This document shows, piece after piece, positions 5,333 to 38,968 of a stretch of 64,000 nt of DNA. Each line of letters opens with the position of its first letter. The first letter of the stretch is position 1. The DNA lies in assembly GCA_041697335.1 (NCBI GenBank), contig JBGUGD010000030.1:32001-96000 (forward strand), read 5' to 3'. Position numbers and translations under genes: made by a program. This stretch comes from Vampirovibrionaceae bacterium NZW_1234 (GTDB lineage Bacteria; Cyanobacteriota; Vampirovibrionia; Vampirovibrionales; JAGQHJ01). The notes under the pieces were generated by a model. The model searched no databases, had not been told where the DNA came from, and worked only from the letters and a program-made list of their open reading frames with translations.

Positions 5333-5333
5333 G

Positions 5334-24191: not shown

Positions 24192-24982
24192 GGTGAGGTT
24201 ACCTCATCTTCCAGCCCCGAATCCAAGGTGGGGGTGATGGGGAGTGTATCGACCTCGGGGATAAAATCTTCACTGTCATCCAGGCCATTCATTTGTGCCA
24301 TGTGACTTTCGATGCCGCAGATACGCCGATAGGGGCAATGACTGTCCAGGCAGCTTGGTGGTAACGAATACGTCTCTTGCTGGGTTATGCGTAGAATACT
24401 GTCCATAACCCGGGTTCGGGTGGCTTGATGACGGGTATCGTTGTAGGGGATCTGGATGGCTTTGACCTGGTTTTGATTCACTTGAACATAGGTAAACACA
24501 AAGGATTCAGGGGGGAGGGCCGTCAGGCCGAATTCATGACGACTTTCATAAAGTGCATAGAGATACAAGACGGTTTGCCAGTCTTCGTCGGCGGGAAACG
24601 GGATACTGGTACCCGTTTTCCAGTCTAAAATATGAATTTTATCCTGGACTTGAACGATGCGATCAATGCGGCCATAAAACCAGCGTCCATCCAAAGCCAA
24701 GGAGAAACCCCATTCACTGGCAATAACCGGGTATTGTGACCACTTGCTTGCCGCTAATACCCGCCAAGCAGCCACAATGTCGCTGTCGGCTTCGGCTGCG
24801 ATGGGAGCGACCGGCAGCTGTCGGGCAGTATAGTCCAGCAGTTGGTGGACACCTTTGCCCAATCGGAAATTTTTGGGGTTGGCTGGCCAAGCCAGCTTCA
24901 AAATGTAATCATAGGCGTATTTTTTTTGGCATTTTTCCCAGGTTTTAAGCTGGTTAACGGAAAAGCTATCCGGCATGGACAA
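24167..24982 (-). CDS. PD-(D/E)XK nuclease (RecB/AddB/Cas4-like) with a probable Fe-S cluster
   Basis: S...L.TW..C, G..VH, E, GRIDRI, ILDWKTG, Q..LY, C-terminal C...CPY..IC. Confidence 0.88.
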   Translation of the reverse strand: MSMPDSFSVNQLKTWEKCQKKYAYDYILKLAWPANPKNFRLGKGVHQLLDYTARQLPVAPIAAEADSDIVAAWRVLAASKWSQYPVIASEWGFSLALDGRWFYGRIDRIVQVQDKIHILDWKTGTSIPFPADEDWQTVLYLYALYESRHEFGLTALPPESFVFTYVQVNQNQVKAIQIPYNDTRHQATRTRVMDSILRITQQETYSLPPSCLDSHCPYRRICGIESHMAQMNGLDDSEDFIPEVDTLPITPTLDSGLEDEVTSPWLDLHAF

Positions 24983-27900
24983 CCTCCGTTGATGTTGGGT
25001 TGATGAGGGCTTGAGGAGATGTTGCCTGCGGCATCAGCTGGCTCAGGACGTCAAAGTAGCGAGAGGGAACTTGTGCCTCTGGCTTTCCGTGCCAGTTTCT
25101 GGCTTCCATGGGATAGGATAAAAATAACCCTTTTCGGGCACGGGTAATACCGACATAGACCAAGCGGGCTTCTTCTTCGACTTTTTTGGTGATCTGTCCG
25201 GCTTTCAGGATCTCGGATGCGATGGGGGTGGCCTGATTCAGTTGCTGCAATTCGATGGCTAACTTGTCGCTTTCGCCCCATTGTACTGATTTCGTGAGAC
25301 TTGGAAAGGATTTTTCTGACATGCCAGGGATGAACACGAAGTCAAATTCCTGTCCTTTCGATTTATGGAGGGTCATGACCTGCACAAATTGGCCCTTGGC
25401 ATTGTCTGGAATGTCAGCGCCTTCCTGAACCACTTTAAACGGCAGGCGCTTTCGCTCCAGGCATTGCTGAAACTCCTGATTGACCCATTCCAACGGTGAT
25501 CGGTCTTCTAGACCTGCTTGGGCCAGTCGGTTCACCCAGTTCTGTGCTTTTAAGGCACACAAATAGCCAATGCTCCGATGGTGGGGTTGTATTAAAAAGC
25601 GGTCCGTTACTTTAACAATGAGGCTGCAAATGTCCTGGCCAAAGGTAAATCGCATCAGGTCATGCAAGTTGTAATACAACTGGAGTAATCCTTCATGAGC
25701 AATCTGGCTGGGGTTTTGATTGAGAAAAGCTACTGTCGAGAGAGTCAATGTCTCTGTTTGGGGGGCTGCTTCCAGACTGTCTTGCGGCAACGCCAGCAAT
25801 CCCATGTGATGGAGATGGTTGCACAGCTGTTGGAAAAGCTCTGGTTGGCTGGGGTCTTCTAAAACGTTTAACGTATATACGATAGCCAGAAAGGCAGGGT
25901 TTAAGTCGGGGGAGTCTGTATAGCTAATGGCTTTGATGCCATGTTCTTGCAGAAAGCGGGTATAGGCAAGGACATCACTATTATTTCTCAAAAGCAGGGC
26001 AATACTGTTTTTAGGATGGCTTTGCTGAAGATGGCCGATCTGGTGAAGCAAGCCTTCTTGTTCTTGTGGGCTTGTGGGATAGGCGTTGGCCTGAAGTGGT
26101 TCTAACAGGCCAGGATTCATCCCGCTGACAGGAACCATGGTGACCGGTTGAAAGGCGTTTTTAAGGACTTCATCGTGACATGCCCACTGAATAAAGCGGT
26201 TAGCAACGTCCATGACCTCAGGTGCACAACGGCCGCTATGATCCATGGTGACAACCAGGCCGTTCTGGTGACACTCTTGAATAAATCCCCGAAAGACGTC
26301 GGTATCGGCTGAGCTGAACGTGGTGGTAATGGATTGGTTGGTATCACCGGTCCGGATTAAATTGCCGTGTTTTGCCGAGAGCAGATGGATAAAACGTTGA
26401 AGGAGGTGTGATGAATCCTGAGCTTCGTCTTCGATGATGTAGTGAAAGCGCGCCTGGTATTTGGCAGCGATGTCCGGGTGGGTTTCCAGCAGGCCAATGG
26501 CGTTGAGGATCAGGTCCGTAAAGTCCAGCTTGCCTTGGCGGTGGAGAGTGGTTTGATAGGCTTCGTAGATGAGCATGAATTTCACCATCTTGCCGCCCCG
26601 GATGCCACGCTCCCAACTACGCTGTTTTAAGATTTCAGGCGTCAGACCCAGGGTCTTGGCCAGTTGAATGGCAGAAATAACGGCATCGAGTCGGCGAAAA
26701 TAAGGATTTTCATCGTTATCAATGGTGTTGACAATAGGTTGTAAGGTCTGTCGCATTTCGATGTCATCCATCACTTGGAGGTCATCGGTATTCAAGCCCA
26801 GGTACAAAGCATGATCGTCTTCGGTAATAATGCGAAAGGCCAAGCTGTGAATGGTACTAACCATGGGCAGGCAGGTGGCCTGATCTCCTAATTTGGCTTT
26901 TAGACGGCTGAGGAGGGTTTTGGCAGCACTGTCCATGTACGTCAAGACCAGAATACTGTCTGGAGAGATGTTTTGGGAAATTAGTTCGAGTAGAAGCTCG
27001 ACGTTCACAAAGGTTTTTCCCGCACCGGGCACGGCGGTAATGGCCATTTTGCCCTGGCGATAGTTTAAGATGGGTACTTGATCCGGACGAAGTTTGGCTC
27101 GGGCCATGGTGGGTCTGGCCATATCTTGAGGCAGCCAAAGCATCTGGTGACACTGGCCGGTGTGGGTGTTGCCTTCATCATCCAACTCACTGGCATACAG
27201 GAAGATGCATTCCAGGGTATAAAGTGCTAAGGTTCTGGTGATATGGCCTGCTCGGGTTCGTGTGAGGAGCTGATTAAAGGAGTCTGAAGCCTGATGCAGA
27301 TCCCCGGTCCAATTAGCCGAATGAACCCAAGCATTATAGAGGGGGGCATTGTCTGTGCGGGACCATTCTCGAGAGGAAACATCCAACCACAGGTGAATCC
27401 GGCGCTCAATTTCAAAGTCGATGATCTTTTGGGGCGTTCCGAGAACAATCGCATCCGGATCCACATCGGTGGGTTTGTTGGGGGTATCGGAGATGACCCC
27501 GGTCTTGGCATGCAGAAACCATTCTCGAGCCGCTTGAACCTCTGAACCGGCTTGAAGAGCCAAAACCTTTGCTAAATTTTGGATGTACAGCGACCGAATG
27601 AGTTGATGCATGTCAAGCATGCTGTCTTGGTCGGTCAGATATGGGCTTATGATTTCGCTAAAGGCGGAGTATAGCTGTTCCTCAAGTGACTCACCCTGCG
27701 CTTTGACCAGCCAATCCAAAAGCTGTTCGTATCGATCTTGGCCTTCAGCTGAAAAGACGTCTGAGTCCGGTAGACTCATGCTGTCGGATCTCAAGCGGTA
27801 GGCCTGCATGAAAGCATCCAGGCCAGTTGGATCCACCTTGTGAAGTTGCAGGCCATGGCGTAAAATGCCATGCATTTCGACCGCCGATAAGGGGAGTTGC

Positions 27901-29162
27901 CACGCTTGCCGATTAACGAGTTGTAAGAGGAGCAGCAGCGTGCGACATGCCGGATGGTCAGTAGGACGTTGTGTACCCGTTAGAATTTGCAGGGGGATTC
28001 CACGGCATTTTAGTTGCTGCTGGAGCTGAAGGCGTGCCAATGTGTCGACCTTGGGCATGACAATAATCAGATCCCCTGGTTTTAGAGAAGGTTTGTTGTG
28101 GGCCAGTGGCTCTTGTTGTAATAGGGCTACAATGTCTGAGACCACTTGAGCAATCATCTCCATGCGAGAAATCGGCTGCGGGCGCCATTGAACTTCCTGC
28201 TTCGGAGTGACGGGTAGGGGCTTTCGATCTTCGAGGCTCAGACCTTGAGTCCAGTTCTCAAGCAGGGTTGTGCCAATCGAATACAAGGCATCGGTGCGTT
28301 CCAGAGTGATGGTTTGAATATCGGGCTTTAAGGCTTTGAGGCCGGGCCAGTCATAGGGGTAGGCATTCAAATACCCGCGTCGGGTGCCGCCTTGAATATC
28401 TGCCGTAATGGCTAGGGTTTTAAGGTGGGGAGTGAGCCATTTAATGAACTGTTGTTGGGCTGGAATGGTTTCATCCACATCATCAACCACCAGGTGCTGA
28501 ATACGACCCTTAAAATGCTTCTGAATCCTTTCCTGGCTTTCGAGAAGCTTATGAAAGGCATCAATCTGCCGACTATTGTCGAGAACCCGATACAGGAGGC
28601 TCCACTGATCAAACAGCTTGATGACCTTATCGATATCGTCCAGGCATGGCTCACCAATCAGTTCCGAACGGCTTCGCATGTCTCGATCGGTTAACCGATT
28701 TTCCGAGCGCAGCCGAATTCGCCGGATGAGCTGGGTAATGAGGCTGTGTTCGGATCCTTGAAACTCCTGAAACGCCTCTGGATGAGCTGCTCGAAGACGT
28801 TGGATGATCTTTCGGATTAGGTATTCTGAGGCCTCAAAACCGGAGAGTTCTGGGAAAATTACCGGATGACCCGGCTTAGCGCTTTTCAGAATTACGGATT
28901 CCACGCATGGCCAATATAAAGCCAACGTGTTTCGGACCAAGGCTGAATAGGTGGTGACGGGCAATTGGGCAAATCCACCGGTCAGCTTGGATTGAAGTGC
29001 TTCTAAAAATCGGGACTTGCGATAATAATTGCTGCACAGGATTAAAATGCTATCCGTGGGGTAGGTGCCAAAGAGGGTCAGCGCTTTTTCAACTAATAGC
29101 CTTGTTTTTCCCGAACGGGCGGGACCTTCGATGGCGATGGAGTCAGACACAGATGGGGGCAT
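24966..29162 (-). CDS. Fused double UvrD/SF1 helicase (degenerate N-half plus intact C-half)
   Basis: N-half GPARSGKT and LVVDDVDE. C-half AVPGAGKT, STIHS, IIEDEAQD, GDTNQSI, MTLHKSKGQEFD, EEARLVYVGITRA. Confidence 0.88.
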   Translation of the reverse strand: MPPSVSDSIAIEGPARSGKTRLLVEKALTLFGTYPTDSILILCSNYYRKSRFLEALQSKLTGGFAQLPVTTYSALVRNTLALYWPCVESVILKSAKPGHPVIFPELSGFEASEYLIRKIIQRLRAAHPEAFQEFQGSEHSLITQLIRRIRLRSENRLTDRDMRSRSELIGEPCLDDIDKVIKLFDQWSLLYRVLDNSRQIDAFHKLLESQERIQKHFKGRIQHLVVDDVDETIPAQQQFIKWLTPHLKTLAITADIQGGTRRGYLNAYPYDWPGLKALKPDIQTITLERTDALYSIGTTLLENWTQGLSLEDRKPLPVTPKQEVQWRPQPISRMEMIAQVVSDIVALLQQEPLAHNKPSLKPGDLIIVMPKVDTLARLQLQQQLKCRGIPLQILTGTQRPTDHPACRTLLLLLQLVNRQAWQLPLSAVEMHGILRHGLQLHKVDPTGLDAFMQAYRLRSDSMSLPDSDVFSAEGQDRYEQLLDWLVKAQGESLEEQLYSAFSEIISPYLTDQDSMLDMHQLIRSLYIQNLAKVLALQAGSEVQAAREWFLHAKTGVISDTPNKPTDVDPDAIVLGTPQKIIDFEIERRIHLWLDVSSREWSRTDNAPLYNAWVHSANWTGDLHQASDSFNQLLTRTRAGHITRTLALYTLECIFLYASELDDEGNTHTGQCHQMLWLPQDMARPTMARAKLRPDQVPILNYRQGKMAITAVPGAGKTFVNVELLLELISQNISPDSILVLTYMDSAAKTLLSRLKAKLGDQATCLPMVSTIHSLAFRIITEDDHALYLGLNTDDLQVMDDIEMRQTLQPIVNTIDNDENPYFRRLDAVISAIQLAKTLGLTPEILKQRSWERGIRGGKMVKFMLIYEAYQTTLHRQGKLDFTDLILNAIGLLETHPDIAAKYQARFHYIIEDEAQDSSHLLQRFIHLLSAKHGNLIRTGDTNQSITTTFSSADTDVFRGFIQECHQNGLVVTMDHSGRCAPEVMDVANRFIQWACHDEVLKNAFQPVTMVPVSGMNPGLLEPLQANAYPTSPQEQEGLLHQIGHLQQSHPKNSIALLLRNNSDVLAYTRFLQEHGIKAISYTDSPDLNPAFLAIVYTLNVLEDPSQPELFQQLCNHLHHMGLLALPQDSLEAAPQTETLTLSTVAFLNQNPSQIAHEGLLQLYYNLHDLMRFTFGQDICSLIVKVTDRFLIQPHHRSIGYLCALKAQNWVNRLAQAGLEDRSPLEWVNQEFQQCLERKRLPFKVVQEGADIPDNAKGQFVQVMTLHKSKGQEFDFVFIPGMSEKSFPSLTKSVQWGESDKLAIELQQLNQATPIASEILKAGQITKKVEEEARLVYVGITRARKGLFLSYPMEARNWHGKPEAQVPSRYFDVLSQLMPQATSPQALINPTSTEVVHAG

Positions 29163-29449
29163 GATAAAAGCCCTATGCTTGAGACTGCCTGACCATTATC
29201 TAACGGTGGCGGTTCAAAACAAAGGCCTTGGCCCGGATGATTTGTGGAAACCAATAACAAGATATTGCTTGTATATATTGTGTTTTGCTATGTTACAAAA
29301 TCAACGCGATGGCGCAATTGTAATGGTTTTGTTGTTTTTATTTTTTTGAAAATAAATACCCTTCGTGTGTCCATGTCAGCATTGAGAGAGTTAGGTGCCC
29401 AAGGCAACGGCTTTGCGTTGTTTCTGTGTGCCGAGAGGAGTTAATCGTC

Positions 29450-30058
29450 GTGGTTTTTGATCCCACAGGTATTGGCCAGTTTTTACCCTATTCAGGTTCC
29501 GGTCCCTCTTTGGCATCTGTTTTGGATGACCGAGCGAATGCACTCGCCTGGGGCTATCCTATTGGTGTGCCGTCTGCCATTACTAACCTCCTTATGCCGC
29601 AACAGTCTCCTTGGGGTGGGATAAATCCTGCTCTCATGTACGGGCAGCCTTTTGGGCAACCTTTTGGCCCCTTGTATTGGTCGCTTCCAGCATTTAATTC
29701 ACCCTATAGTTCGCCTTTTGGTCCTGGGATTCAATCTCCCTTTCCTTCGCCATATGGATTACCTTATGGCGCTTCCTATCCTGGCGCGCTAGGTTTACCC
29801 TATGGTGCCCAACTGCCTTGGGGGACAACACCTTCGTTGGGTTTACCCTATGGGGTTGCTATGGCAAGTCCCTATGGGCTTGGAGCTTCCGGGTTTGGTA
29901 ATGCCAATGGATTTCAGCCCATGAGCCCAGTCAGTGCACCCATGATGGGGGCGGCTCAATCGGGTGCGTTATTGAGTCCGTACGGATTGCCCAGTCAGGG
30001 TAATTTTACCGGAAGGCCACAAGTCAGGCCGACCTTAACCTACCCGGCTGGCTTCTAG
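29450..30058 (+). CDS. Pro/Gly/Ser/aromatic low-complexity protein (P-[YFW]-G repeats)
   Basis: GAGAGGAG RBS before GTG 29450; 11 P[YFW]G motifs; no other long ORF in this interval. Confidence 0.7.
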   Translation: MVFDPTGIGQFLPYSGSGPSLASVLDDRANALAWGYPIGVPSAITNLLMPQQSPWGGINPALMYGQPFGQPFGPLYWSLPAFNSPYSSPFGPGIQSPFPSPYGLPYGASYPGALGLPYGAQLPWGTTPSLGLPYGVAMASPYGLGASGFGNANGFQPMSPVSAPMMGAAQSGALLSPYGLPSQGNFTGRPQVRPTLTYPAGF

Positions 30059-31210
30059 ACTTTGCGTAGCGTGAACGTGCGCCTGGATTTCCGATAGGGA
30101 ATCGCCACCATATTTGCGCAAAAATGCTTGGGCCAGAACAATGGCTAACATGGCTTCACAGACAACACCACAGGCCGGAACAGCAGTTACATCGGAACGT
30201 TCAAAATGCGCTTGTTCCGCTTCTCCGGTTTGGAGGTTGATGCTGGGCAAGGCTTTTCGCATGGTGCTGATGGGTTTCATAACCGCATGAACCACAACCG
30301 GCATACCATTGGTAACACCGCCTTCCAGGCCCCCAGCTCGATTGGTGGGGCGGGTAATCTGATCACCTTCCATGACAATGGCATCATGAAACTGGTCACC
30401 CGGGAGCCGGTCTCCAAGCTCTCCTAAACCGATAGACACGCTTTTAACAGCGGGTATGCTCATTATGGCTTGGGCTATTTGCCCATCCAGTTTATAGTCC
30501 CACTGGGTGTAACTGCCGAGACCCACCGGCACCCCTGTGGCAATCACTTCAATGCGTCCCCCCAGGGTAATGCCCTCTTTAAGGGCTGCGTCCACTTTGG
30601 CTTTCATAGCGGCTAGGGTTTCATCAGACCCGGCACAACGAAAATCATTGCTCTCGGCCCGGGTACGAATCGCCTCAAGATCTGGCGGTAAATCGGCTTC
30701 GTCCACACAAATGCCACCCATGACAATCACATGACTGAAAATGTGGATTCCGAAAGCTTTTAACAATGACTGTGCGAAGGCGCCTGCCGCCACACGGGCC
30801 GCTGTCTCTCGGGCGCTGGCCCGTTCCAGGACATCACGTAAATCCTGAAGCCCATACTTGACGTGCCCTGCCAAATCGGCATGGCCAGGTCGGGGCCGAT
30901 AAAAGGCCTTTTCATCGGCTGCTTCCGTGCGCTCGCCGCTGGTGGCCATAATGGTTTCCCAATTTCGAAAATCCCGGTTTTCAATCCATAAGGAGATGGG
31001 TGCTCCAGTAGTCTGGCCAAAGCGAACACCGTTTAAAATCTTGATTTTGTCTGTTTCAATAGACATCCGCCCCCCACGTCCATAGCCAATCTGCCGACGG
31101 GCCAACTGGTCATTGACAAAGCTTTCGTCAATGGGAATACCGGCAGGTAAGCCGTCCATAAACACAGAAAGCCCCTGACCATGGGACTCCCCGGACGTAA
31201 AAAAGCGCAT
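30035..31210 (-). CDS. aroC: Chorismate synthase
   Basis: SGESHG, RPGHAD, ERASARETA, NRAGGLEGG, MKPIST, ERSD. Confidence 0.98.
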   Translation of the reverse strand: MRFFTSGESHGQGLSVFMDGLPAGIPIDESFVNDQLARRQIGYGRGGRMSIETDKIKILNGVRFGQTTGAPISLWIENRDFRNWETIMATSGERTEAADEKAFYRPRPGHADLAGHVKYGLQDLRDVLERASARETAARVAAGAFAQSLLKAFGIHIFSHVIVMGGICVDEADLPPDLEAIRTRAESNDFRCAGSDETLAAMKAKVDAALKEGITLGGRIEVIATGVPVGLGSYTQWDYKLDGQIAQAIMSIPAVKSVSIGLGELGDRLPGDQFHDAIVMEGDQITRPTNRAGGLEGGVTNGMPVVVHAVMKPISTMRKALPSINLQTGEAEQAHFERSDVTAVPACGVVCEAMLAIVLAQAFLRKYGGDSLSEIQAHVHATQSLEASRVG

Positions 31211-31247
31211 TGAGGGGCCTCAAAAATTAGTATGAACCAGTGTTAAA

Positions 31248-31445
31248 CTAGCTGGCGCGACGCACTTTGTTGGCACGAATGCACGATGTGCAAATACGCA
31301 TGCTCTTACGGGTTCCGTTAGGAAGCTCAACGTGGCATTTTTGCAGGTTGGGCTGTTGGAAGAACCGGTGGTGCTTGTTCGAGAAGCAGACTTTGTTAGA
31401 TTTATTGCGGCGTTTGCCACACATTTCACAGGTTGCCATGGACAC
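31248..31445 (-). CDS. rpmB: 50S ribosomal protein L28 (Zn-binding form)
   Basis: CEMCGK...N.V.FSN....R.F.PNLQ...ICTSCIR. Confidence 0.93.
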   Translation of the reverse strand: MSMATCEMCGKRRNKSNKVCFSNKHHRFFQQPNLQKCHVELPNGTRKSMRICTSCIRANKVRRAS

Positions 31446-31585
31446 ATTCCTTTTCTGGGAGTGAATAGATAGAAAGTAAGGTTATTTAACCACTAAGATC
31501 GTCGCTTGGCAAGTGACGCCCATTTGCAAGACAAATGATAGGTTTGATATCCCAGGACCAGATGTTTTGCGTTTGTGTTTTTAGA

Positions 31586-32758
31586 TTATCGGCTTGGGTT
31601 CGGTGCGGCCAGATTCATCGGGTGCTGCGTCCCAGTAAAGATCAATTTTCCACCGGCGCTTGGAAACGGATTAGAAGAGGTAGGCTGGATTTTTTGACGA
31701 GCTTGCAATTTTTGGAATTCCCGCTCGGTGTACCATTGGTTGAACCACGTAATACCGTAGCCCAGAACGCCGATAGAGATAGCAAACGCAGCGGCGTCGC
31801 CCCAAACACGACTGTTTTTCGCATAGCGGGAAAACATTTCATTAAAGGGAGGCAGGGTTTGACTGAACCAGCTGGTCAGCTTTCCTAACAAACCCTTGCT
31901 TGCGGTCGTATTCCCGGCACCTAGGCTTTTTAGGTACTTGGCACGATCGGCATCAAGACGCTTTAGGAAACCAAAAGCCTGTTTGGCAATATCCTCTAGT
32001 TGTTTTGGGTTATTGCTAGTCTTTACCAGCTTGATGCCCTCTTCAATCCGGCGTTTGAAACGATTTAGGAGGCCGCGAGAGACTCCTGATAAGGAACGGT
32101 TGCCCATCACTTTATCAATAGCCTGGATTAAACCTTTGTGGTTCTGCTTGTTCTTGAGTAACGATACCAGGCGGTTGGAATCCAGGACCCGGTACATATT
32201 CTCCAGTTCACTGTATTTAAACAGGGATTGGGTGTTCATCATCTGAATACCCCGAATGGGTTCGATGAGCCCCCGCGTAAGAACCCTTAAGAGGATGGGA
32301 AAGCCCATAATCAGAATGGTAATGGTCGGGATATCCCGGAAGATAATGTCTCGAACTTCGCGCTTGTCTCCATTGCTGGCCCGTTTTAAGGCATGTTGCA
32401 CCCTGCCACCCACCATGAAACCATAGGCCAGGACTAACATAACGCCAAGCGGAATCTCTGCCCCAAAGTGACCGATTTTGGGTAAAAAAGGCACTTCCTG
32501 AAAGTCCATTGAGAAGAGTCGTTGGAAATAGCCTTGGCCGAAGAAACCTTTCACCGCTTTGGGAATGCGGTTGTCTAAAAACTTGCCCATGGCTTCGGGC
32601 CAGCCAAAGAAGGGTTTAGAAGCCTTAGCCAGGGTGCTTTCAATGGCACCGGCTTGGATGCCTTTGCCGAAGCGAAGACTGCTTTCTGCCACTACTCGTT
32701 TTGTGAGTGTTGTTTGGGCAGGGCGAATTTGAGAGGTTGCGCTCGGTGTGATATTCAT
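31586..32758 (-). CDS. Hypothetical basic membrane protein, family II (here 'A')
   Basis: AGGAGG RBS; ATGA overlap with the upstream gene; leader ending LRFG; Y...R...A...EVRDIIFRD motif; hydrophobic segments including a C-terminal one (AAFAISIGVLGYGITWFNQWYT). Confidence 0.85.
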   Translation of the reverse strand: MNITPSATSQIRPAQTTLTKRVVAESSLRFGKGIQAGAIESTLAKASKPFFGWPEAMGKFLDNRIPKAVKGFFGQGYFQRLFSMDFQEVPFLPKIGHFGAEIPLGVMLVLAYGFMVGGRVQHALKRASNGDKREVRDIIFRDIPTITILIMGFPILLRVLTRGLIEPIRGIQMMNTQSLFKYSELENMYRVLDSNRLVSLLKNKQNHKGLIQAIDKVMGNRSLSGVSRGLLNRFKRRIEEGIKLVKTSNNPKQLEDIAKQAFGFLKRLDADRAKYLKSLGAGNTTASKGLLGKLTSWFSQTLPPFNEMFSRYAKNSRVWGDAAAFAISIGVLGYGITWFNQWYTEREFQKLQARQKIQPTSSNPFPSAGGKLIFTGTQHPMNLAAPNPSR

Positions 32759-34140
32759 GCCGAAACCTCCTTCCCGGCGTCAAAGAAAGAAACGGCAGTC
32801 GATGTCTGCGTCGACTGCCGTAATTGACGCGATAAGATTTTTTGAGCCAAGTGGGACGGCAAACTGCCGGCAAATTTGGGTTGTTTTGCCGGACCTTCAG
32901 GTGCCATGCCGTCTAAGCGGACTGTCCGGTTGGCTTCATAGGTTTTGCCGCGCTGGGCAATGGAGGAAATCCACAATAAGGTAAAGCCGGTCAGGAGTAA
33001 TGACGAGAGCGAGAGAATCAGCTTGGAGGACCGGGTCGATGTCAGCACTTTTTCGGCGGCTTTGTAGAAAACGTTGCGAATGTTGGGGGTACCGCTGACG
33101 CCCTTAAGATTCTTGCGAGCCACCTGAGTAATGTCTTCGGCATAAGGCTTAAATTTGCGCATGCACTCCATAAAGTGCTCTACCGACGTGGTGGCATGAT
33201 GGGCACCCTTGGGTAAGTTCAGGGTAATGTCATGCAGCTTGGCCGGGTTTTTGAAACGCAGGACTTTTTCATTAAAGTAAAAGGCAATACGGCTAAAGAT
33301 AGTCCGCATTTGCTGGGTTTGTTTGACAAACTCGGTATCAAACATCTTGCCTTTTTTCGGACTCATCTTGGACCAGCGCTCAATCCAGGCTGTGAGGGCT
33401 TCGCCGTAGGTTAGCTGGTTCAAACGGGCTTTACCTCCAGGCAAGGATTGGAGGAAGGCAACCAAGGCCTGATCTGATTTGGGAAGCGCGAGGGACGGCT
33501 TAATGCCGATAATGCGATTGAGGCCGTTTTGCTTGGTGAAGTGGCCTTTACCCTTCATCAGCAGGTTGTCCAGGAAGGTTTGAATCATTTTTTGATTGGC
33601 CTGGTCCAACTTCACGCTGCTGCTGAAATACCCTGTTTTTCGCAAGGCCTGAGACTTCATGGTTTCCATCAGTGCCGTATGGTAGGTCTTCAGGTCTGAG
33701 CTGCTTAACACCACACCTAAACGACCCAGCATTAGAGCCGAGCCAATGGCAAACATAACGGCAGGAACAATAAAGATACCTGGGCCGGTTTCGACTTCCC
33801 GCAAGGTTTCCTCAACACCATTCTTGTAGTTGAGGCCTTTGGTATTCATGTAAAGGCTATGCAGCAATTGTTCTAAAGGTTTTTTCTCGCGAATGCTCGG
33901 ATCTTCCTGCGGATCATAGGGAATACGCCCCCGACGCAGGGAGTTGATAACCCGGGGAATCCATAGCGCAATGACATCTTGTAAAAAGAAGTTCCAAACA
34001 AAGTTTTCCGTCGTCAGCTGGAAGAAGGATGCCGGTTGCAGCATCGGCATTAAGCCAAACTGAGGGCTTTTGGTTTGTGTTACCGTTGGTGCCGCAAGGC
34101 GCCCAGCAGACATGTGTATGGGTGGAGATTGAACTATCAT
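32755..34140 (-). CDS. Hypothetical basic membrane protein, family I (here 'B')
   Basis: GGGAG RBS before ATG 34140; leader ending PQFG; QDVIALWIPR and EETLREVETG motifs; C-terminal hydrophobic helix. Confidence 0.85.
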   Translation of the reverse strand: MIVQSPPIHMSAGRLAAPTVTQTKSPQFGLMPMLQPASFFQLTTENFVWNFFLQDVIALWIPRVINSLRRGRIPYDPQEDPSIREKKPLEQLLHSLYMNTKGLNYKNGVEETLREVETGPGIFIVPAVMFAIGSALMLGRLGVVLSSSDLKTYHTALMETMKSQALRKTGYFSSSVKLDQANQKMIQTFLDNLLMKGKGHFTKQNGLNRIIGIKPSLALPKSDQALVAFLQSLPGGKARLNQLTYGEALTAWIERWSKMSPKKGKMFDTEFVKQTQQMRTIFSRIAFYFNEKVLRFKNPAKLHDITLNLPKGAHHATTSVEHFMECMRKFKPYAEDITQVARKNLKGVSGTPNIRNVFYKAAEKVLTSTRSSKLILSLSSLLLTGFTLLWISSIAQRGKTYEANRTVRLDGMAPEGPAKQPKFAGSLPSHLAQKILSRQLRQSTQTSTAVSFFDAGKEVSA

Positions 34141-34455
34141 GGACTCCCGAAACCATCCATCGCATCGAATCATTCTGATAAAACCAAGTCAATAGTGCCG
34201 GTTGCTAAAATATGAATGAATATTAAGGCGAGCTATTGAAACCCTTCGGAAGGACTACAACTATAGCGAACTTGTTGCCCAAACACCAGCGTTTGGGCGT
34301 GGATCTGTGACATTTGTTAACGAGGGGGTCTATCTTGCAGATACCACTTCAGAAAAAACACTGATGCCAGTGCTGTCGAGGAGCCTACTTCCCATAGTGG
34401 TGAGCATCAGAGACGATTGCTTGTTTTAACTGTGAAATTAGGTATAGCCTCAGGC

Positions 34456-34471
34456 GTAACTATTTTGTTAC
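34456..34471. promoter_or_regulatory. Palindromic candidate operator GTAAC-N6-GTTAC between the divergent operons
   Basis: GTAACTATTTTGTTAC about 90 bp upstream of ATG 34564. Confidence 0.35.
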
Positions 34472-34563
34472 AAAAGTCACTTTTTTGATGTCCTTTAGGC
34501 ATGATTGATGCTTGAGCTGTTTTAAAGGATGTAGTCATTTTTGTGTTGGGCAACCAATAGGTC

Positions 34564-35958
34564 ATGATTCGTCAAATCCCCCCTGCGCGCCTTTCCTTGC
34601 GAGAGGCCACACCGCCAATGGAACCACGAGATCCCAAAAAGGGACTTCGGGGTGCTTTTCGCTTTCAAGGGGTAAGTGCACCCAGCCTTGCCAGTAGTCT
34701 TATCGGCCAGGGGAGTTCTGGAAACTGGTACAACTGGGTTGTTAAAGGTCGTAATGTTCTTAGTACCATTGAGTCTGACCCGCTGATTGGCTTGGGGACC
34801 ACGGATTTAATGGGGATGGTTATTCCCCGGACCGGTATCGAGCTGAAAAAACGCGGGGCCATTCCGGCTCGAGAAACGTTCTTCCGGGAAATCACCGGCA
34901 CGATTACGAATACGTTTCTGGCAGGCTGGTTGGGCATTCTGGCAGTCATGCTCTTTAATGGAAAAATTACTAATCCCAAAGGGCTGGATATGCGGGCATG
35001 GATTGATAGTCCGAGCTTGGATGCTTATTCCAGTGTTCTAAAAGATATTTTCAAGCAAGATAAAATTACAACAGCTGATGATTTGCGGCGTGCCTTCTTG
35101 AAGAATGCCTTAGGTCGCCTGGAATCCACCGATAATGTCTGGAAATTGAAGCAATACAAGACCTACTGTAATGGTCGCTTGCCTCAAAAAGAGCTGGATT
35201 ATCTGGTTAATTGCTTCCTGGGTCGTCAAAAAGGCTTTGAATCTTTAGTCTTTAATGTTGAAGACGCTGTCAAAACCAAAATGAAACTGCCGCAATACCA
35301 GGCCGAAGTGCGTGAGGCCATGGCCGCTGCCAAAGAGGCTTTTATGCACAAGCTTGGCAATCAGCCCTTGACGAAAGCCCAGCAGATTTTATTGACTCGC
35401 GCCCGCATGGCCGCTCGGCGGGTTACCCTCAGTAACCAGGAGCGGATCCTAAGGCAATTGGAGTCTCAACGGCTTCGCCTATACGAAAAAACTTTTCTGG
35501 ATCGGGTTTATAACTTTGTCATTAACAAAGGTAAGCTTTCGGAAGAAGTCTTTTTTATGGATCGGGCCGCCAAAGGCACTCCTGTGTCCAGTATTGGCGT
35601 TAAAAACATCCGGGATCATTTGGCCAAAATCAAGCGCATGAGCGCGTTGCTGGATCATGCGCTGGTGGGTCAGGAGGCCAAGCTCAATCTGGCGGCTGTA
35701 GAGAAACGCTTGTTCGGCCAACTGCCTTCCAAAGGAGCAACAAACTGGTTTCAGCGCATGCTGATGCCGAATCGGGCCGAGGGGTTAATTCCCTATCTCT
35801 GTAAGTCGAAGTATTGGCTGGTTCTGTTGCCGGTTCTGGTGGCCGGGACCTTGGGCTGCTATATGGTGGTCATCAACAACTGGCTCACCAAGCTCAAGAC
35901 CGGTGGCAATGACTTTCCTGGTGAAAAGGCCCTGATGAGTTCGGGAGGAAAACACTAA
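34564..35958 (+). CDS. Hypothetical basic membrane protein, family I (here 'C')
   Basis: Leader ending FRFQG; TDLMGMVIPR and ETFFREITG motifs; C-terminal hydrophobic helix then NNWLTK...FPG. Confidence 0.85.
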   Translation: MIRQIPPARLSLREATPPMEPRDPKKGLRGAFRFQGVSAPSLASSLIGQGSSGNWYNWVVKGRNVLSTIESDPLIGLGTTDLMGMVIPRTGIELKKRGAIPARETFFREITGTITNTFLAGWLGILAVMLFNGKITNPKGLDMRAWIDSPSLDAYSSVLKDIFKQDKITTADDLRRAFLKNALGRLESTDNVWKLKQYKTYCNGRLPQKELDYLVNCFLGRQKGFESLVFNVEDAVKTKMKLPQYQAEVREAMAAAKEAFMHKLGNQPLTKAQQILLTRARMAARRVTLSNQERILRQLESQRLRLYEKTFLDRVYNFVINKGKLSEEVFFMDRAAKGTPVSSIGVKNIRDHLAKIKRMSALLDHALVGQEAKLNLAAVEKRLFGQLPSKGATNWFQRMLMPNRAEGLIPYLCKSKYWLVLLPVLVAGTLGCYMVVINNWLTKLKTGGNDFPGEKALMSSGGKH

Positions 35959-36761
35959 TGGTTCACCTCTCGCCATTCAGCCCGGTCACTCGCCCGATAC
36001 CCCAAAAAGCTCCTCGTTTTGGACATTATCCGACCATGGGAATGTTGAATTTTCTGGATTTTAACAGTGTCGGTGCCTCTACCGTCGGGCAAAACAAGGT
36101 AATCTATGCGGCTGTTATTCTGTCTCGCTTAGCGAAAGCTCGTTCTGCCAATGAGTTTCGTGAAAACATCACTCGAGATGGTCTTGGCTGGTACAGTTGG
36201 TTTATGGGTGGCCCCCTTATGCAAACGGCTTTCGCCTTATGCATGGTGCCATTGGTCTGTAAGGCTGCACAACCCTTAATGATCACCCGCCTGAATCAGA
36301 AAGCCAACGTCGGCAAGAAAATTCTGTACACTCTTTTTAGCCCCTCCAGCTTGTGGTTGCTGGCTACAGACAAGCAATTGCATCAGCGTAAGGAACAAGT
36401 TCTGCAGGGCATGAAGGCCTCAAAGGCTGTGGCTGCTTCGCAACTCCAGCGAACAGCGAATTTGTTTGAGCGCACGATTAATTTGCGTTCTCTGACGTCG
36501 CTCTTTGGTATCGCCTTTACTATCTTCCTCCTGGGCTTTGTCATCAACCTGGTCAATATCGCCTTGACCCGGGCCAATGTGCGTAAAAAAGACCAGGAGA
36601 AACAGATGCAGTCCCAACAGTCCTCAGGCTTCAAGGCCAATGTCAACGCCGAGAAACTGCTTGATGTGCTCCAGCGCCGACTAGATACTTGGCAGCAAGA
36701 ACAAAATGCCAAGGCAACACCCTTTAAGTCTTCCTACCACGGATTTATGCAGCGGGTTTAA
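35958..36761 (+). CDS. Hypothetical basic membrane protein, family II (here 'D')
   Basis: GGAGGA RBS; TAATG overlap; leader ending APRFG; Y....SR...A...EFRENITRD motif; C-terminal hydrophobic helix then VNIALT. Confidence 0.85.
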   Translation: MVHLSPFSPVTRPIPQKAPRFGHYPTMGMLNFLDFNSVGASTVGQNKVIYAAVILSRLAKARSANEFRENITRDGLGWYSWFMGGPLMQTAFALCMVPLVCKAAQPLMITRLNQKANVGKKILYTLFSPSSLWLLATDKQLHQRKEQVLQGMKASKAVAASQLQRTANLFERTINLRSLTSLFGIAFTIFLLGFVINLVNIALTRANVRKKDQEKQMQSQQSSGFKANVNAEKLLDVLQRRLDTWQQEQNAKATPFKSSYHGFMQRV

Positions 36762-36778
36762 GCTTGCCCAAGTAAAAT

Positions 36779-37786
36779 TTAGGAATTCAGTTTGCTGCGC
36801 TCTTCGCTAGAGGGGGTATGAGCTTCTTTTAGTGAACTCTTTGGACTGGCCTTGGAAAAAAATTTCTGAAACAACTCGGTTGAAAGCAGCTCGGTGAAGG
36901 GTGTAACTCGTTTTTGTCCGGGCTGGGTGCTGGCTGTTAAGCCCATAGCCATGTCCAACTGTCGTTTCAGCTCGTCTGTGTTGGGCATCTTTTGGATGGT
37001 CCCATTGTAGACCAGCGAAATATTGCCGGTTTCCTCGGAAACAACAATGCAGCGGCTGTCTGAAATTTCGCTTAACCCGACGGCGGCTCGGTGCCGGGTG
37101 CCATATTTCCAGCTTAAGTTGGGATCCTCAGACAACGGGAGTAACACGCCGGCTGCTTTAATCCGATTGTCGCTGGGGTTAATGATGATGGCGCCGTCAT
37201 GAAGGGGAGTATTCGGGTGAAAAATGGTCAGTAGGAGTTCGGTGCTTAGGCGGGCATCCAAGCGGGTGCCTGCTTCTAGATAATTGCCACCCAAACCGCT
37301 CGTGCTTTCCAGGACAATCAAGGCTCCGGTTTTGGTTTTGCTCAATAGGCGAACTGACTCCACCAGTTCATGAACCAGGTAAGCTGCATCTTTTTCTTTG
37401 CCCCCCGGGAGTAAGGAAGAGCGGTTGAAGAGATCCGGCTGTCCCAGATAGACGAGCAGTCGCCGCAATTCCGGCTGAAAGAGAATGATAAAGCCAATAA
37501 TACTGATTTGAAGAATGGCTTGCAGAATACCGCTGATGATGGTGAGGTTGAAAATGCCGGCCAGTAGATAAAAGGCCAACACGACGGCGACGCCTTTGAG
37601 CAATTGCGCTACATAGGTGCCATGAATCTTGAAATAGAACCAGGAAACCAAGACAAACACCAGCAGAAACTGCAAGGGGATTTTCCACATCAGATACTGT
37701 GCCGCGAGAAACTGGCCCCACTCAGACCACGGGATTGTTGCAAGCAGCCAATTGCTCATGATGGGCATATCTATGGGCTTTACCAT
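36779..37786 (-). CDS. cdaA: Diadenylate cyclase CdaA (DisA_N domain)
   Basis: N-terminal TM helices, FQPELRR, GALIV, PLHDGA, GTRHRAA, VSEETG. Confidence 0.95.
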   Translation of the reverse strand: MVKPIDMPIMSNWLLATIPWSEWGQFLAAQYLMWKIPLQFLLVFVLVSWFYFKIHGTYVAQLLKGVAVVLAFYLLAGIFNLTIISGILQAILQISIIGFIILFQPELRRLLVYLGQPDLFNRSSLLPGGKEKDAAYLVHELVESVRLLSKTKTGALIVLESTSGLGGNYLEAGTRLDARLSTELLLTIFHPNTPLHDGAIIINPSDNRIKAAGVLLPLSEDPNLSWKYGTRHRAAVGLSEISDSRCIVVSEETGNISLVYNGTIQKMPNTDELKRQLDMAMGLTASTQPGQKRVTPFTELLSTELFQKFFSKASPKSSLKEAHTPSSEERSKLNS

Positions 37787-37957
37787 TCCTTAATTCACAA
37801 TTCGGGGTGAACCCGGTGTGATGTTCAATCACCCGCGTTACTGCATCTCAACGACACCACCCACCCTGTACTTTAATCATTGTAACAGGATTGTGTGCTG
37901 GATAAAAGCGCTTTTGGAATGTCTCAACCAAATAAAGCAGGTGATGAGACAAAGAGC

Positions 37958-38968
37958 CTAACAGGCGGCCATATTCGCTTCTTTAATCGCCTTGGTCAAG
38001 GCCGGGACAATCTCAAAGACATCGCCCACAATACCAAAGTCGGCAATGTCAAAGATAGGTGCGTCCCCATCCTTATTAATGGCAATGATGGTTTTGCTCG
38101 AACTCATGCCGACCTGATGCTGAATGGCACCCGAAATCCCGAGAGCCACATACAATTGCGGACTAACGGTCTTGCCGGTTTGACCCACTTGCTCGGCATG
38201 TGGACGCCATCCGGCATCAACTACAGCTCGGGAAGCGCCTACCGCTGCGCCTAAGGCTTCCGCTAACCCCTCGACGAGAGGGAAGTTCTCGGGACCTTTT
38301 AAGCCACGCCCACCTGAAACAACAATTTCGGCCTCTTCCAGCTTTTTGCCGGTTTTGGTTTCGCCTTTCACTCGTTGCGTGAGTTTGGTATGGGCCATGT
38401 CAGCGGACAGATCCGGTGTGGCAGTTTCCAAAGCTGCGCTGGCACCTGAATCGGGTTTGGCTTTGGCAAACGCTTTGGCCCGGAGGCTGACCATTTGAGG
38501 GCGGGTGGCTGTATGAACCACGGCTCTCATGTTCTCGCCATAAGTCGGACGCGTGATTTCCAACTGTCCATTGGCGCCAAAGGCCAAATCAATGGCATCC
38601 GGGGCCAAGCCAGCTTGTACACGAACGGCAACCCGAGGCAAGAAGTCTCGGGTGGTCGAGGTGGATCCGGCCAACACAATTTGAGGTTGTTGAGCCCCAA
38701 TGGCATCGGCCAGGGCCTTTGTATACAGCTCCACTTGGTATTGCTCCAGGAGATCATGCTTCAAGGCCAGGACCTTCGTAGCCCCGTATTGGCCCAGCAG
38801 GTTCTGAGCTTGACTGAGGTCGGTATTGCTGCCTGCCAGAACCACGGCTGTGATGTCGGCAGGATTGGCAGCGGCTAATTTCTGTGCCGCGGATAAGGCT
38901 TCTAATGAAATATCCAATGGGGCGCCGGATTCGGAGAGTTCGGCTACCACCCAGATTGCATTTGTCAT
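37958..38968 (-). CDS. etfA: Electron transfer flavoprotein alpha subunit
   Basis: VSGGRG, GASRAVVDAGW, QVGQTGK, GISGAIQH, INKD. Confidence 0.96.
   Translation of the reverse strand: MTNAIWVVAELSESGAPLDISLEALSAAQKLAAANPADITAVVLAGSNTDLSQAQNLLGQYGATKVLALKHDLLEQYQVELYTKALADAIGAQQPQIVLAGSTSTTRDFLPRVAVRVQAGLAPDAIDLAFGANGQLEITRPTYGENMRAVVHTATRPQMVSLRAKAFAKAKPDSGASAALETATPDLSADMAHTKLTQRVKGETKTGKKLEEAEIVVSGGRGLKGPENFPLVEGLAEALGAAVGASRAVVDAGWRPHAEQVGQTGKTVSPQLYVALGISGAIQHQVGMSSSKTIIAINKDGDAPIFDIADFGIVGDVFEIVPALTKAIKEANMAAC

Follow-up and report, generated by a model that had tools for sequence, protein, structure and literature searches.

The SWEET, semiSWEET, PQ-loop and mitochondrial pyruvate carrier (MPC) proteins are built of two three-helix units, which are connected by one inversion-linker helix when they are fused. 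SecD and SecF contain six helices each and large periplasmic domains, and the conserved charges in the SecDF membrane part couple to ion flow. Toxins of the ClyA kind are secreted in soluble form, and their head domain conceals a hydrophobic hairpin. Here we describe a locus that invites comparison with these systems, from a member of Vampirovibrionia, the closest non-photosynthetic relatives of cyanobacteria. To our knowledge, almost none of the genes specific to this lineage has a known role.

The locus encodes two pairs of proteins, each pair with one member of what we call family I and one of family II. The likeness of such a module to the SWEET and MPC proteins is an analogy of layout: three-helix units occur as products of adjacent genes or as one chain with an extra linker helix, and, as in these carriers, helices from the two subunits are predicted to pack in parallel. 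The module proteins are, however, far larger, with helical domains of 100-230 residues inserted before the third helix, and their first helix is only a putative transmembrane helix. They have no Pfam match to the SWEET, PQ-loop and MPC proteins, which are also absent from the Foldseek and VIA-align lists for the models of protein D and of the fused form described below. The likeness to SecD and SecF is likewise an analogy only, comprising adjacent genes for two subunits related by layout, a fused form, and conserved Asp and Arg residues near or within membrane helices. In contrast to this, neither sequence nor fold similarity to SecD and SecF was found for the module, and the SecDF periplasmic domains are of a different fold.

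The locus and its four proteins

The locus is located in a 64,000-nucleotide stretch of contig JBGUGD010000030.1 of Vampirovibrionaceae bacterium NZW_1234 (the window, by which we mean the whole stretch that was analysed). A check of open reading frames (ORFs) confirmed the layout A<-B<- spacer ->C->D that the initial annotation had given, with all four ORFs at the coordinates claimed for them:

31586-32758, minus strand: gene A, assigned to family II, 390 aa (ORF, hydropathy, family alignment)
32755-32758, minus strand: B/A ATGA junction (sequence read)
32755-34173, minus strand: gene B, assigned to family I, 472 aa (ORF, hydropathy, family alignment)
34174-34563, no strand: divergent spacer, 390 bp, counted from the first ATG of B
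34564-35958, plus strand: gene C, assigned to family I, 464 aa (ORF, family alignment)
35956-35960, plus strand: C/D TAATG junction (sequence read)
35958-36761, plus strand: gene D, assigned to family II, 267 aa (ORF, family alignment)
36779-37786, minus strand: diadenylate cyclase gene (DAC domain, CdaA type; Pfam DAC E 7e-40), convergent with D and outside the module

Both overlaps that had been claimed, ATGA between B and A and TAATG between C and D, can be read in the sequence. On the minus strand, the B/A junction is GGAAGGAGGTTTCGGCATGA, where the stop codon TGA of B overlaps the start codon ATG of A and a GGAGG is found 10 nt upstream; the ATGA junction suggests that B and A are translationally coupled. 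The C/D junction is GGGAGGAAAACACTAATGG, where the stop codon TAA of C and the start codon ATG of D have one base in common, with a GGGAGGA upstream. A spacer of 423 bp, the length originally proposed, is obtained if B starts at Met12 (34140), which is possible, but not if the count begins at the first ATG of B, which leaves 390 bp. The promoters of both arms are presumably located in this spacer. It contains one weak sigma-70-like site (34307-34336, plus strand), and the number of such sites is no higher than in shuffled sequences. An Rfam scan of positions 31000-38000 gave no match except for one lncRNA model (E 0.14) outside the spacer.

Each of the four proteins has two or three hydrophobic segments and is rich in basic residues (K+R 12-15% versus D+E 5-9%), which are found on both sides of the hydrophobic helices. 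The segments (by hydropathy for A and B) and the residues that are invariant in the family alignments (21 members for A, 21 for B, 20 for C and 20 for D) are as follows:

A: segments at about 95-113, 138-156 and 318-336; invariant D85, R119, A123, R126, E134, D137, R141, D142, G333, N340
B: segments at about 58-76, 132-150 and 385-403; invariant F39, D66, R74, G82, D91, N115, E121, R125, E126, P131, N301, K384, Q407, Y412
C: segments at about 110-128 and 408-437; invariant P40, D81, P88, R89, R97, E104, R108, E109, G112, N137, L214, T442, P452
D: segments at about 43-59, 82-100 and 183-203; invariant Y50, R57, E66, E69, R73, D74, G77, Q140, G193, N200, T204

An R[DE] motif ahead of a hydrophobic helix had been described as common to all four proteins. 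The family alignments extend it to E-x-x-R-[ED], which shows little or no variation in any of the four.

Two families, a probable mirror duplication and a fused form

Pairwise BLASTP shows no similarity between B and C (best E 2.4) or between A and D (best E 0.21). At the profile level, the B family aligns with the C family (hhalign 95.9%, E 5.1e-9, 111 columns), pairing QDVIALWIPR with TDLMGMVIPR and EETLREVETG with RETFFREITG, and the A family aligns with the D family (hhalign 97.8%, E 7.4e-13, 197 columns), pairing the R..A..R / E.R[DE]...RD core and the C-terminal helix. The resemblances of B to C and of A to D, both noted in the initial annotation, are therefore borne out by profiles while being invisible to BLASTP, and the alignments support a family I consisting of B and C and a family II consisting of A and D. 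The family I core would read D..PR..RG ... E..RE, followed by a hydrophobic helix and a C-terminal hydrophobic helix, and that of family II R..A..R ... E.R[DE]...RD, followed by a C-terminal helix with N..T[KR]. Comparison across the families gave 6.5% for B/A and 5.5% for C/D; a common ancestry of families I and II is only suggestive.

Matches in related genomes were found for A in 42, B in 47, C in 38 and D in 41 of 61. In all 20 of the related loci that we fetched, which belong to three families of the order and were picked because their B- and C-type matches were close together, the four genes have the mirror layout with family I preceding family II on each arm. The pairing is thus conserved in the synteny check that had been proposed, and the profile similarities and the 20 mirror loci together uphold the earlier suggestion that the arms are an old inverted duplication of a I+II pair. 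The alignments, hhalign and these loci agree in placing a family I core before a family II core, adjacent or fused.

This layout could also mean that B, A, C and D form one obligatory hetero-tetramer or a larger assembly, with the mirror arrangement under shared control keeping the stoichiometry equal. The short common spacer of the divergent genes in all 20 loci fits such an assembly, as does the fact that the arms have been together since before the three families split. However, the two pairs are separated in related genomes G006, G008 and G010 (by 35-93 kb or on different contigs). With the queries used, the genomes of one genus (g6) have B (10/10) and A (7/10), but neither C nor D (0/10 each), and one family (f7) has fused forms only. 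In addition, single-chain models of I+II are self-contained folds. A single obligatory complex of all four proteins is weakened by these observations, and we consider it improbable.

The fused forms are proteins of about 500-650 aa that follow the operon order, with family I first, then an additional hydrophobic helix and then family II, and the genome studied here contains two of them (F7 and F34). In a family alignment of 32 members, the N-terminal part matches C (hhalign 99.0%, E 9e-18) and B (97.0%, E 1e-10), and the C-terminal part matches D (98.8%, E 5e-17); the A family has no profile match to the fused family (17%). The linker helix (residues 328-344, mean hydropathy 1.89) is present family-wide. 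For the fused protein, AF2 gave a single, compact and confident fold (pLDDT 86.2, pTM 0.82), and the AF2 model of D has a pLDDT of 80.2. In both models, long helices of 46-92 residues reach beyond the thickness of a bilayer. The split and fused forms constitute a natural experiment, in which two membrane subunits are joined while their orientation is unchanged.

Predicted pairing and comparison with known folds

In the predicted complex of B (30-425) and A (60-365), ipSAE is 0.63 (0.62-0.65 between runs), as opposed to 0.00 for the best of three controls, at least 80% of the contacts agree between runs, and the partner pLDDT is at least 74. This score is the model's own confidence. Among solved complexes 116 of 157 attained the passing mark, and among mismatched pairs 2 of 215 did so; both counts are approximate, since our own alignments were used. 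B+A hence passes the complex prediction that had been suggested as a check. Together with the profile similarities, the conserved layout and the natural fusion, this result argues for the membrane complex of families I and II that the initial annotation had envisaged, and the two families probably bind 1:1. No like complex was found among solved structures by PDB fold and sequence comparison.

Invariant positions are enriched at the predicted interface, both in B (6/14 versus 69/396 residues, P = 0.02) and in A (7/10 versus 69/306, P = 0.0015), and include D66, R74 and R125 of B and D85, R119, R126, E134 and D137 of A. These invariant charged residues are precise targets for mutagenesis. In the prediction, the C-terminal helix of B (392-407) packs parallel to and in register with the first helix of A (106-122), and such parallel packing fits the extra hydrophobic linker helix of the fused form. 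One C-D protein encoded by a single ORF (L084) is without the hydrophobic linker helix. This conflicts with the parallel packing model unless it is an assembly error; the genome in question is 83% complete and in 450 contigs.

The explanation that we favor, and consider reasonably probable, is that B+A and C+D are two paralogous copies of a two-subunit integral membrane module with a polar pathway. In each module, a family I protein would be bound 1:1 to a family II protein via their hydrophobic helices, both being products of a translationally coupled gene pair. In each subunit, the first helix would be moderately hydrophobic with conserved charges, and the second would begin at the invariant E-x-x-R-[ED]; next would come a middle domain, helical and variable, and then a strongly hydrophobic C-terminal helix with a polar motif of the N..T[KR] type behind it. 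Both pairs would go back to one I+II unit that was duplicated in inverted orientation long ago, and elsewhere in the genome the same unit exists as single chains in the order I, one hydrophobic linker helix, II. Residence in the cytoplasmic membrane, the topology and a transport or coupling activity are inferred: the interface Asp, Arg and Glu residues would form a polar pathway or a binding site, and the module would conduct ions or solutes or be coupled to ions. Each paralog may owe its own regulation or partners to its middle domain, which diverges from the others, and to short conserved motifs in its disordered tails.

No result is specific to transport, and for the fused and D models neither Foldseek nor VIA-align gave a confident match to a transporter or channel fold. 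The fold tools themselves caution that a fold may be present even when no match to it is listed. If the transporter or coupling reading is true, the module represents a new structural class. A bolder version is rather doubtful in our opinion: a new fold forming a pseudo-symmetric device, in which the I and II halves derive from one ancestral half and are split 3+3 or fused 3+1+3, the interfacial Asp, Arg and Glu residues provide a conducting or ion-coupled pathway, and the whole was invented and multiplied in the non-photosynthetic relatives of cyanobacteria.

The searches agree with the initial annotation in that no known family was recognized in Pfam, NCBIfam, PADLOC, PDB sequences or PDB folds. 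For the four proteins, the best Pfam match has E 0.067 (13.5 bits versus a cut-off of 29.8) and the best NCBIfam match is FraC (14.9 bits versus a cut-off of 100). When the members of all five family alignments were scanned individually, no Pfam family was touched by more than two members and none fell below E 0.001. No family of the anti-phage defence library PADLOC-DB 2.0 matched A-D, F7 or F34 at E <= 0.01, and the module proteins matched neither PDB sequences nor PDB folds. Insertase heterodimers of the Oxa1/Get1-Get2 type have a three-helix core with a cytosolic coiled coil, and their matches here are at noise level: both WRB/CAML (6so5_D) versus the fused model (Z 3.8, rmsd 6.5, 96 aligned) and the Get1 cytosolic domain (3sjb_C) versus the D model (Z 5.9, rmsd 2.9, 59 aligned) are inside the noise range for helical models. 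We conclude that families I and II constitute a previously undescribed protein superfamily, one that is multi-copy and strongly conserved. Its predicted structure is confident, and no relative could be detected in known families or solved folds.

In a look-alike search of the ESM Atlas, the nearest named cluster to both A (0.82) and the fused protein (0.77) was one from Melainabacteria, whose proteins are 381 aa long and carry Pfam MTP18 (PF10558) in a third of cases. Membership of the four genes in MTP18 was rejected, as the model matches other genes here and in relatives, but never A-D. A genome-wide search with PF10558 matched only C25 (G000:C25:86327-86773) and C34:224196, and the module family profiles gave no match to PF10558 proteins at E <= 10.

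Alternatively, the I-II modules could be membrane anchors or scaffolds, such as envelope tethers or membrane-shaping or protein-recruiting platforms, in which the middle domains and tails matter more than a pathway and the tail motifs recruit partners, for instance the protein of a neighboring TPR gene. The low-confidence N-terminal tails carry [RKQ]F[GSQ] in 18/21 members of B, 16/20 of C, 9/21 of A, 10/20 of D and 20/32 of the fused family, for an estimated chance expectation of about 13%. The last 12 residues contain GG in 15/21 members of B and 16/20 of C (0/21 of A and 0/20 of D), and the variable C-terminal tails in the B and C alignments are rich in proline and glutamine. The helices longer than the bilayer also suit this role, as does a TPR gene adjoining A in 12 of the 16 A-side flanks submitted. 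However, no TPR gene is found beside A in the window itself, and conservation is strongest at charged residues that lie within the hydrophobic helices or adjoin them, as opposed to the tails or middle domains. Moreover, no scaffold or coat fold rose above noise: the Z scores of ESCRT-III, BAR and flotillin (3.8-6.6) are in the range that the tool itself gives as noise for helical models. We regard a scaffold as a rather unlikely role, which, if true, would point to a lineage-specific organisation of the envelope.

Distribution and genomic context

The superfamily was found in parts of the class to which the window belongs and nowhere else: 174 genomes from the phylum's other classes gave no match. 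Within the class it is near-universal in some families, among them one with genomes of about 1.9 Mb (24/24 and 115/123 genomes); the matches in three families amount to 24/24, 10/10 and 2/2 genomes. The D-family profile found nothing in four other families of the class (0/23, 0/23, 0/9 and 0/12 genomes), hence the module does not represent an essential core function of the whole class. In the genome studied here, four units are clear, and another three, which are divergent, are probable.

The conserved neighborhood of the cluster is a housekeeping one, with cdaA, aroC and the TPR gene; cdaA adjoins D in 11 of the 15 D-side flanks submitted from the 20 loci. The genes flanking the cluster include no secretion system. 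Across 31 flanks from 18 of the 20 related loci and across 11 further neighborhoods, neither a secretion gene nor an immunity-like gene was recurrent, and the other paralogs have mixed housekeeping neighbors. A transporter gene of the two-partner-secretion type (ShlB/POTRA) was found only around F34, among the other paralog neighborhoods examined, with F34 two genes downstream of it.

This context bears on the earlier proposal, which linked a pore, translocon or membrane-inserting effector to a predatory or host-associated life. The pairs would then be two-component pore-forming or membrane-inserting effectors, like binary alpha-helical toxins, or a translocon acting against prey or host. Like the ClyA-kind toxins (XaxAB/YaxAB/PaxB, Hbl, Nhe), the module consists of two unlike, mostly helical proteins with hydrophobic and long helices encoded side by side. 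Predatory life is conceivable in the hot-spring or microbial-mat metagenomes, as the runs containing DNA of the organism are labelled, and the position of F34 near a secretion-type transporter gene also counts for this reading. None of the runs in which the stretch was found is an RNA run. Of the direct matches, both at noise level, Pfam Bacillus_HBL was touched by 1 of 21 A-family members (E 0.014) and PaxB (6ek4_D) appeared at Foldseek rank 50 (E 0.39, TM 0.08/0.12); VIA-align listed no ClyA-type toxin at Z >= 3.7. However, by hydropathy none of the four N-termini has a signal-like hydrophobic segment, the first peak lying at residues 58-110, and in the models the hydrophobic helices near both protein ends form a single bundle, whereas a soluble toxin would keep its hairpin hidden. 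These features and the lack of a recurrent secretion gene do not match a soluble, secreted toxin of the ClyA type. The flanks, the PADLOC result, the syntenic housekeeping context on the chromosome, the near-universality in one family and the number of clear and probable units in this genome also speak against the proposal. A secreted pore or effector is therefore unlikely, and a weapon against prey or host in particular seems scarcely credible to us; its weakening bears on how such clusters are annotated in metagenome-assembled genomes.

A resident membrane protein, as in the two-subunit module that we favor, fits the lack of a signal-like segment and of secretion flanks, the housekeeping context and the near-universality better than a weapon does. 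Conserved neighbors, the mixed housekeeping neighbors of the paralogs and family-wide presence characterize a resident, vertically inherited gene set. About 480 clusters (50% identity) match the superfamily among 1.84 billion representatives.

Two protein families in a mirror-image cluster

ORF calling confirmed the four genes that the initial annotation had placed in a mirror-image cluster, and reading of the sequence bore out the translational overlaps proposed for them, ATGA in one arm and TAATG in the other. The cluster consists of the following features.

Genes and junctions of the cluster (window positions)
31586-32758, minus strand: gene A, 390 aa
32755-34173, minus strand: gene B, 472 aa
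34564-35958, plus strand: gene C, 464 aa
35958-36761, plus strand: gene D, 267 aa
B/A junction, minus strand: reads GGAAGGAGGTTTCGGCATGA; the stop codon of B (TGA) overlaps the start codon of A (ATG)
C/D junction: reads GGGAGGAAAACACTAATGG; the TAA stop of C and the ATG of D have one base in common

The sequence around both junctions reads as having a GGAGG-type site upstream. The B-C spacer measures 390 bp if B starts at its first ATG; the 423 bp given previously corresponds to a start at Met12. The spacer contains no Rfam element, riboswitch or other RNA element, a promoter scan found no more sites in it than in shuffled sequences, and the G+C content is even throughout the cluster region (0.45-0.52).

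The two first genes (B and C) and the two second genes (A and D) had been proposed to resemble each other. Pairwise BLASTP gave no significant match for either B/C (best E 2.4) or A/D (best E 0.21). Comparison of the four family alignments (20-21 sequences each) as profiles by hhalign made both similarities significant, and the segments it aligned are those originally quoted as similar.

Profile comparisons between the four families (hhalign probability, E-value, aligned columns)
B vs C: 95.9%, 5.1e-9, 111
A vs D: 97.8%, 7.4e-13, 197
B vs A: 6.5%, 0.0057, 43
C vs D: 5.5%, 0.0069, 66

As the scores are high for B/C and A/D and low across the pairs, the four proteins fall into two families, B and C making up family I and A and D family II, and the arms are old paralogs. 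Hence, at the level of sequence profiles, the cluster is an old inverted duplication of a family I + family II pair. In region-restricted comparisons of family I with family II, the N-terminal cores of C and D aligned with a probability of 34%, and the C-terminal helix with its motif reached 72-88% (25% in one reversed-sequence control), which is suggestive only of one ancestor common to both families.

All four proteins are basic (K+R 12-15% vs D+E 5-9%). In family I, the first helix is moderately hydrophobic and carries an invariant Asp and a P-R (D66/R74 in B; D81/P88/R89 in C). A basic loop follows, then an E-x-x-R-E at the opening of a hydrophobic second helix, ~230 aa of variable helical sequence in the middle, and a hydrophobic C-terminal helix, behind which comes a polar motif. 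Family II has the same plan, with R..A..R, E.R[DE]...RD, a shorter middle and a C-terminal helix ending in N..T[KR].

Each protein was searched singly against 61 genomes (the window's own and 60 relatives), and a match was present in 38 genomes for C, 47 for B, 42 for A and 41 for D. We fetched 20 loci, picked because B- and C-type matches lie close together in them, and classified their ORFs by phmmer: the layout A<-B<- ->C->D, or its mirror image, is kept in 20/20, in agreement with the expected conservation of pairing. The two pairs are separate in three genomes (G006, G008 and G010), and the mirror layout is therefore common but not obligatory. A complex that requires all four proteins, as the joint layout could imply, appears improbable.

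Single-chain relatives and the predicted complex

The N-terminal core of D also matched longer ORFs elsewhere in the window's genome. Two of them, of 563 aa (contig C7) and 645 aa (contig C34), served to define a family of proteins ~500-650 aa long, with 33 matches in a large protein database, all unnamed or 'hypothetical' and devoid of any Pfam domain; two of the 33 carry an organism label, Melainabacteria or Cyanobacteria MAGs. The N-terminal part of this family's profile aligns with C (hhalign 99.0%, E 9e-18) and with B (97.0%, E 1e-10, 276 columns, as far as the C-terminal helix), and its C-terminal part with D (98.8%, E 5e-17); no alignment to A was obtained (17%). These proteins are thus natural single-chain versions of I+II in the order of the operon. 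Between the two parts lies one more hydrophobic helix, at residues 328-344, whose hydropathy averages 1.89 over the family. From the fused-family alignment, AlphaFold2 predicted a single fold with confidence (mean pLDDT 86.2, pTM 0.82), nearly all helical, with helices 35-59 residues long.

The proposal that families I and II form a heteromeric pair was examined by predicting a complex of B(30-425) with A(60-365), the pair that has diverged more, and the prediction favours it: ipSAE was 0.63 (runs 0.62-0.65) against 0.00 for the best of 3 controls, the runs share at least 80% of contacts, and the partner pLDDT is at least 74. The same mark is reached by 116/157 solved complexes and 2/215 mismatched pairs, a rough calibration since our alignments were custom-made. 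No similar complex has been solved, which makes it unlikely that the pass stems from model memory; it remains the model's own confidence and not a measurement. In the model, the first helix, the start of the second helix and the C-terminal helix of B contact the corresponding three helices of A, with B 392-407 running parallel to and in register with A 106-122. Invariant positions are enriched at the interface: in B, 6/14 of them lie there vs 69/396 of all residues (hypergeometric P = 0.02), and in A 7/10 vs 69/306 (P = 0.0015); those at the interface include D66, R74 and R125 of B and D85, R119, R126, E134 and D137 of A. Binding of family I to family II at 1:1 through their hydrophobic helices, with invariant charges at the interface, is therefore supported by prediction.

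With such parallel packing, family I would end on one side of the membrane and family II would start on the other, which would account for the additional helix in the fused family. The resulting arrangement, 3+3 when split and 3+1+3 when fused, recalls by analogy only the SWEET/semiSWEET and PQ-loop proteins, which follow the same logic. The positive-inside rule gives no decision on topology, as the helices have basic residues at either end. In one relative (genome G046, locus L084, 5634-7664, plus strand), C and D form one 676-aa ORF which, unlike the fused family, joins them by a 115-residue hydrophilic linker without the extra hydrophobic helix. That genome is 83% complete and in 450 contigs. 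Either this fusion is an indel artefact of assembly at a TAATG-type junction, or the parallel-topology model is incomplete or contradicted.

Search for known relatives

The initial annotation had recognised no known family, and we likewise obtained no match in the family, sequence and fold libraries searched. Pfam and NCBIfam gave nothing near cut-off for the four proteins, per-member Pfam scans of all five family alignments revealed no recurrent family, and PADLOC returned no match. In profile searches of the PDB, the fused and B families retrieved designed helical proteins only (E 0.013-0.28), and two 755-805-aa relatives retrieved nothing. The A family matched CyanoQ (Sll1638), a four-helix-bundle lumenal protein of photosystem II, over profile positions 193-275 in the middle domain (E 0.004, 19.6 bits). 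The same list contained apolipophorin, designed bundles and one receptor fusion; because of the designed helical bundles we read this weak match as probably one of helical-bundle composition.

In fold searches, the top matches to the fused model had E 0.065 in Foldseek and Z 5.5 in VIA (1u84, rmsd 3.1, 76 aligned), and those to the D model E 1.1 and Z 6.7 (5uh7_B, rmsd 4.1, 64 aligned), all within the tool's stated noise for helical models, which by itself does not prove the fold novel. Searches with the fused-family and D-family alignments revealed no fused relative of greater length that carries a known domain, evidence that the tool rates as weak. Titles and abstract openings in the literature on Melainabacteria/Vampirovibrionia proteins pointed to no paper on the family.

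The ESM Atlas listed unnamed Melainabacteria clusters and a single named lead, MTP18 (PF10558), a eukaryotic mitochondrial fission-protein family. This lead was rejected, as it belongs to other genes and has no profile relation to families I and II. The window's genome encodes one such protein of 278 aa (G000:C25:86327-86773; locus L099 1222-2058, plus strand; PF10558 31.4 bits, E 3.7e-7, above cut-off), and PF10558 matches over cut-off occur in 17/61 related genomes.

The cluster is real, conserved and without known relative.

Distribution, neighbourhood and possible role

The superfamily is restricted to one lineage. The fused-family profile retrieved 480 cluster representatives at E <= 0.001 among 1.84 billion (104 at E <= 1e-30). 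In a phylum sample of 301 genomes, the window's included, it matched 117, all of the window's own class (115/123 in one family, 1/3 in another); the 174 genomes of other classes gave no match. The D-family profile matched 5/14, 10/10, 2/2 and 24/24 genomes in four families of the class and 0/23, 0/23, 0/9, 0/12, 0/2 and 0/1 in six others; in the family with a patchy distribution of D-type proteins, B-type ones occur in 19/19 genomes. Besides B/A, C/D and the two fused copies, the window's genome contains three probable divergent members, none with a Pfam domain.

Probable divergent members in the window's genome (G000)
C12:36427-37656 (L107 428-1657), plus strand: single chain, 409 aa; hhalign to fused profile 62%
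C29:117610-118899 (L109 611-1900), plus strand: single chain, 429 aa; hhalign to fused profile 80%
C13:187529-190132 (L108 530-3133), minus strand: 867 aa, two family-II-like halves

We favour, with moderate confidence, a resident heteromeric membrane module present as two paralogous I+II copies. The two families, their inverted duplication and the I+II pair all stand as first described. The suggestion of a secreted pore or membrane-inserting effector does not, and we consider it very improbable: none of the four N-termini has a hydrophobic signal-like segment, the synteny around the cluster is of a housekeeping kind, no secretion gene recurs in the neighbourhoods examined, and the superfamily is near-universal in one family whose genomes are small (about 1.9 Mb). 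In a resident module of the cytoplasmic membrane, the interfacial Asp/Arg/Glu cluster might form a polar pathway or binding site, serving ion or solute conduction or ion coupling. Such a transport or coupling mechanism is a tentative proposal. The residues and constructs for functional tests of the module are now defined.

A rather unlikely alternative is a scaffold or organiser built on the tails and middle domains. All five groups carry, in N-terminal tails of low confidence, a short [RKQ]F[GSQ] motif (9/21 to 18/21 members; ~13% estimated by chance), and GG is found near the C-terminus only in split family I (15/21 in B, 16/20 in C, 0 in A and D). A TPR-repeat protein of about 455-505 aa, a candidate reader of short terminal motifs, is convergent with A in 12/16 of the A-side flanks submitted (e.g. 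L068 632-2038, plus strand) and absent from that position in the window.

On the other side, D faces a convergent DAC-domain diadenylate cyclase gene (cdaA), both in the window and in 11/15 D-side flanks submitted. A functional link to c-di-AMP was discarded: the genes are convergent, with neither co-transcription nor a riboswitch, and we regard the association as synteny only. Chorismate synthase (aroC) adjoins A in the window and in the closest relative, and the other paralogs have mixed housekeeping neighbours. A ShlB/FhaC-type two-partner-secretion transporter gene (POTRA + ShlB, E 1e-28; L088, that is G000:C34:113000-130000, 4802-6547, plus strand) occurs two genes upstream of the fused paralog of 645 aa and was not seen beside other paralogs; a 1135-aa ORF without Pfam match (L088 10273-13680, plus strand) follows the same paralog. 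A protein with a C-terminal AMIN domain adjoins gene A in one relative (L085 6477-7736, minus strand), and in the window's own genome another lies ~2.3 kb downstream of the fused paralog of 563 aa (L087 11670-12653, minus strand).

The window stretch is found in DNA runs labelled hot-spring or microbial-mat metagenomes, with no RNA run among the runs listed as containing it. Beside the cluster, the window contains an ORF of 1398 aa that has two P-loop-like GKT motifs and looks like a UvrD/AddA-type helicase-nuclease (24966-29162, minus strand), a putative ORF of 210 aa with PYG/SPYG-like repeats and a high content of Pro, Gly, Tyr and Ser (29426-30058, plus strand) between this large helicase-like gene and aroC, and a 65-aa Cys-rich basic ORF resembling ribosomal protein L28 (31248-31445, minus strand).
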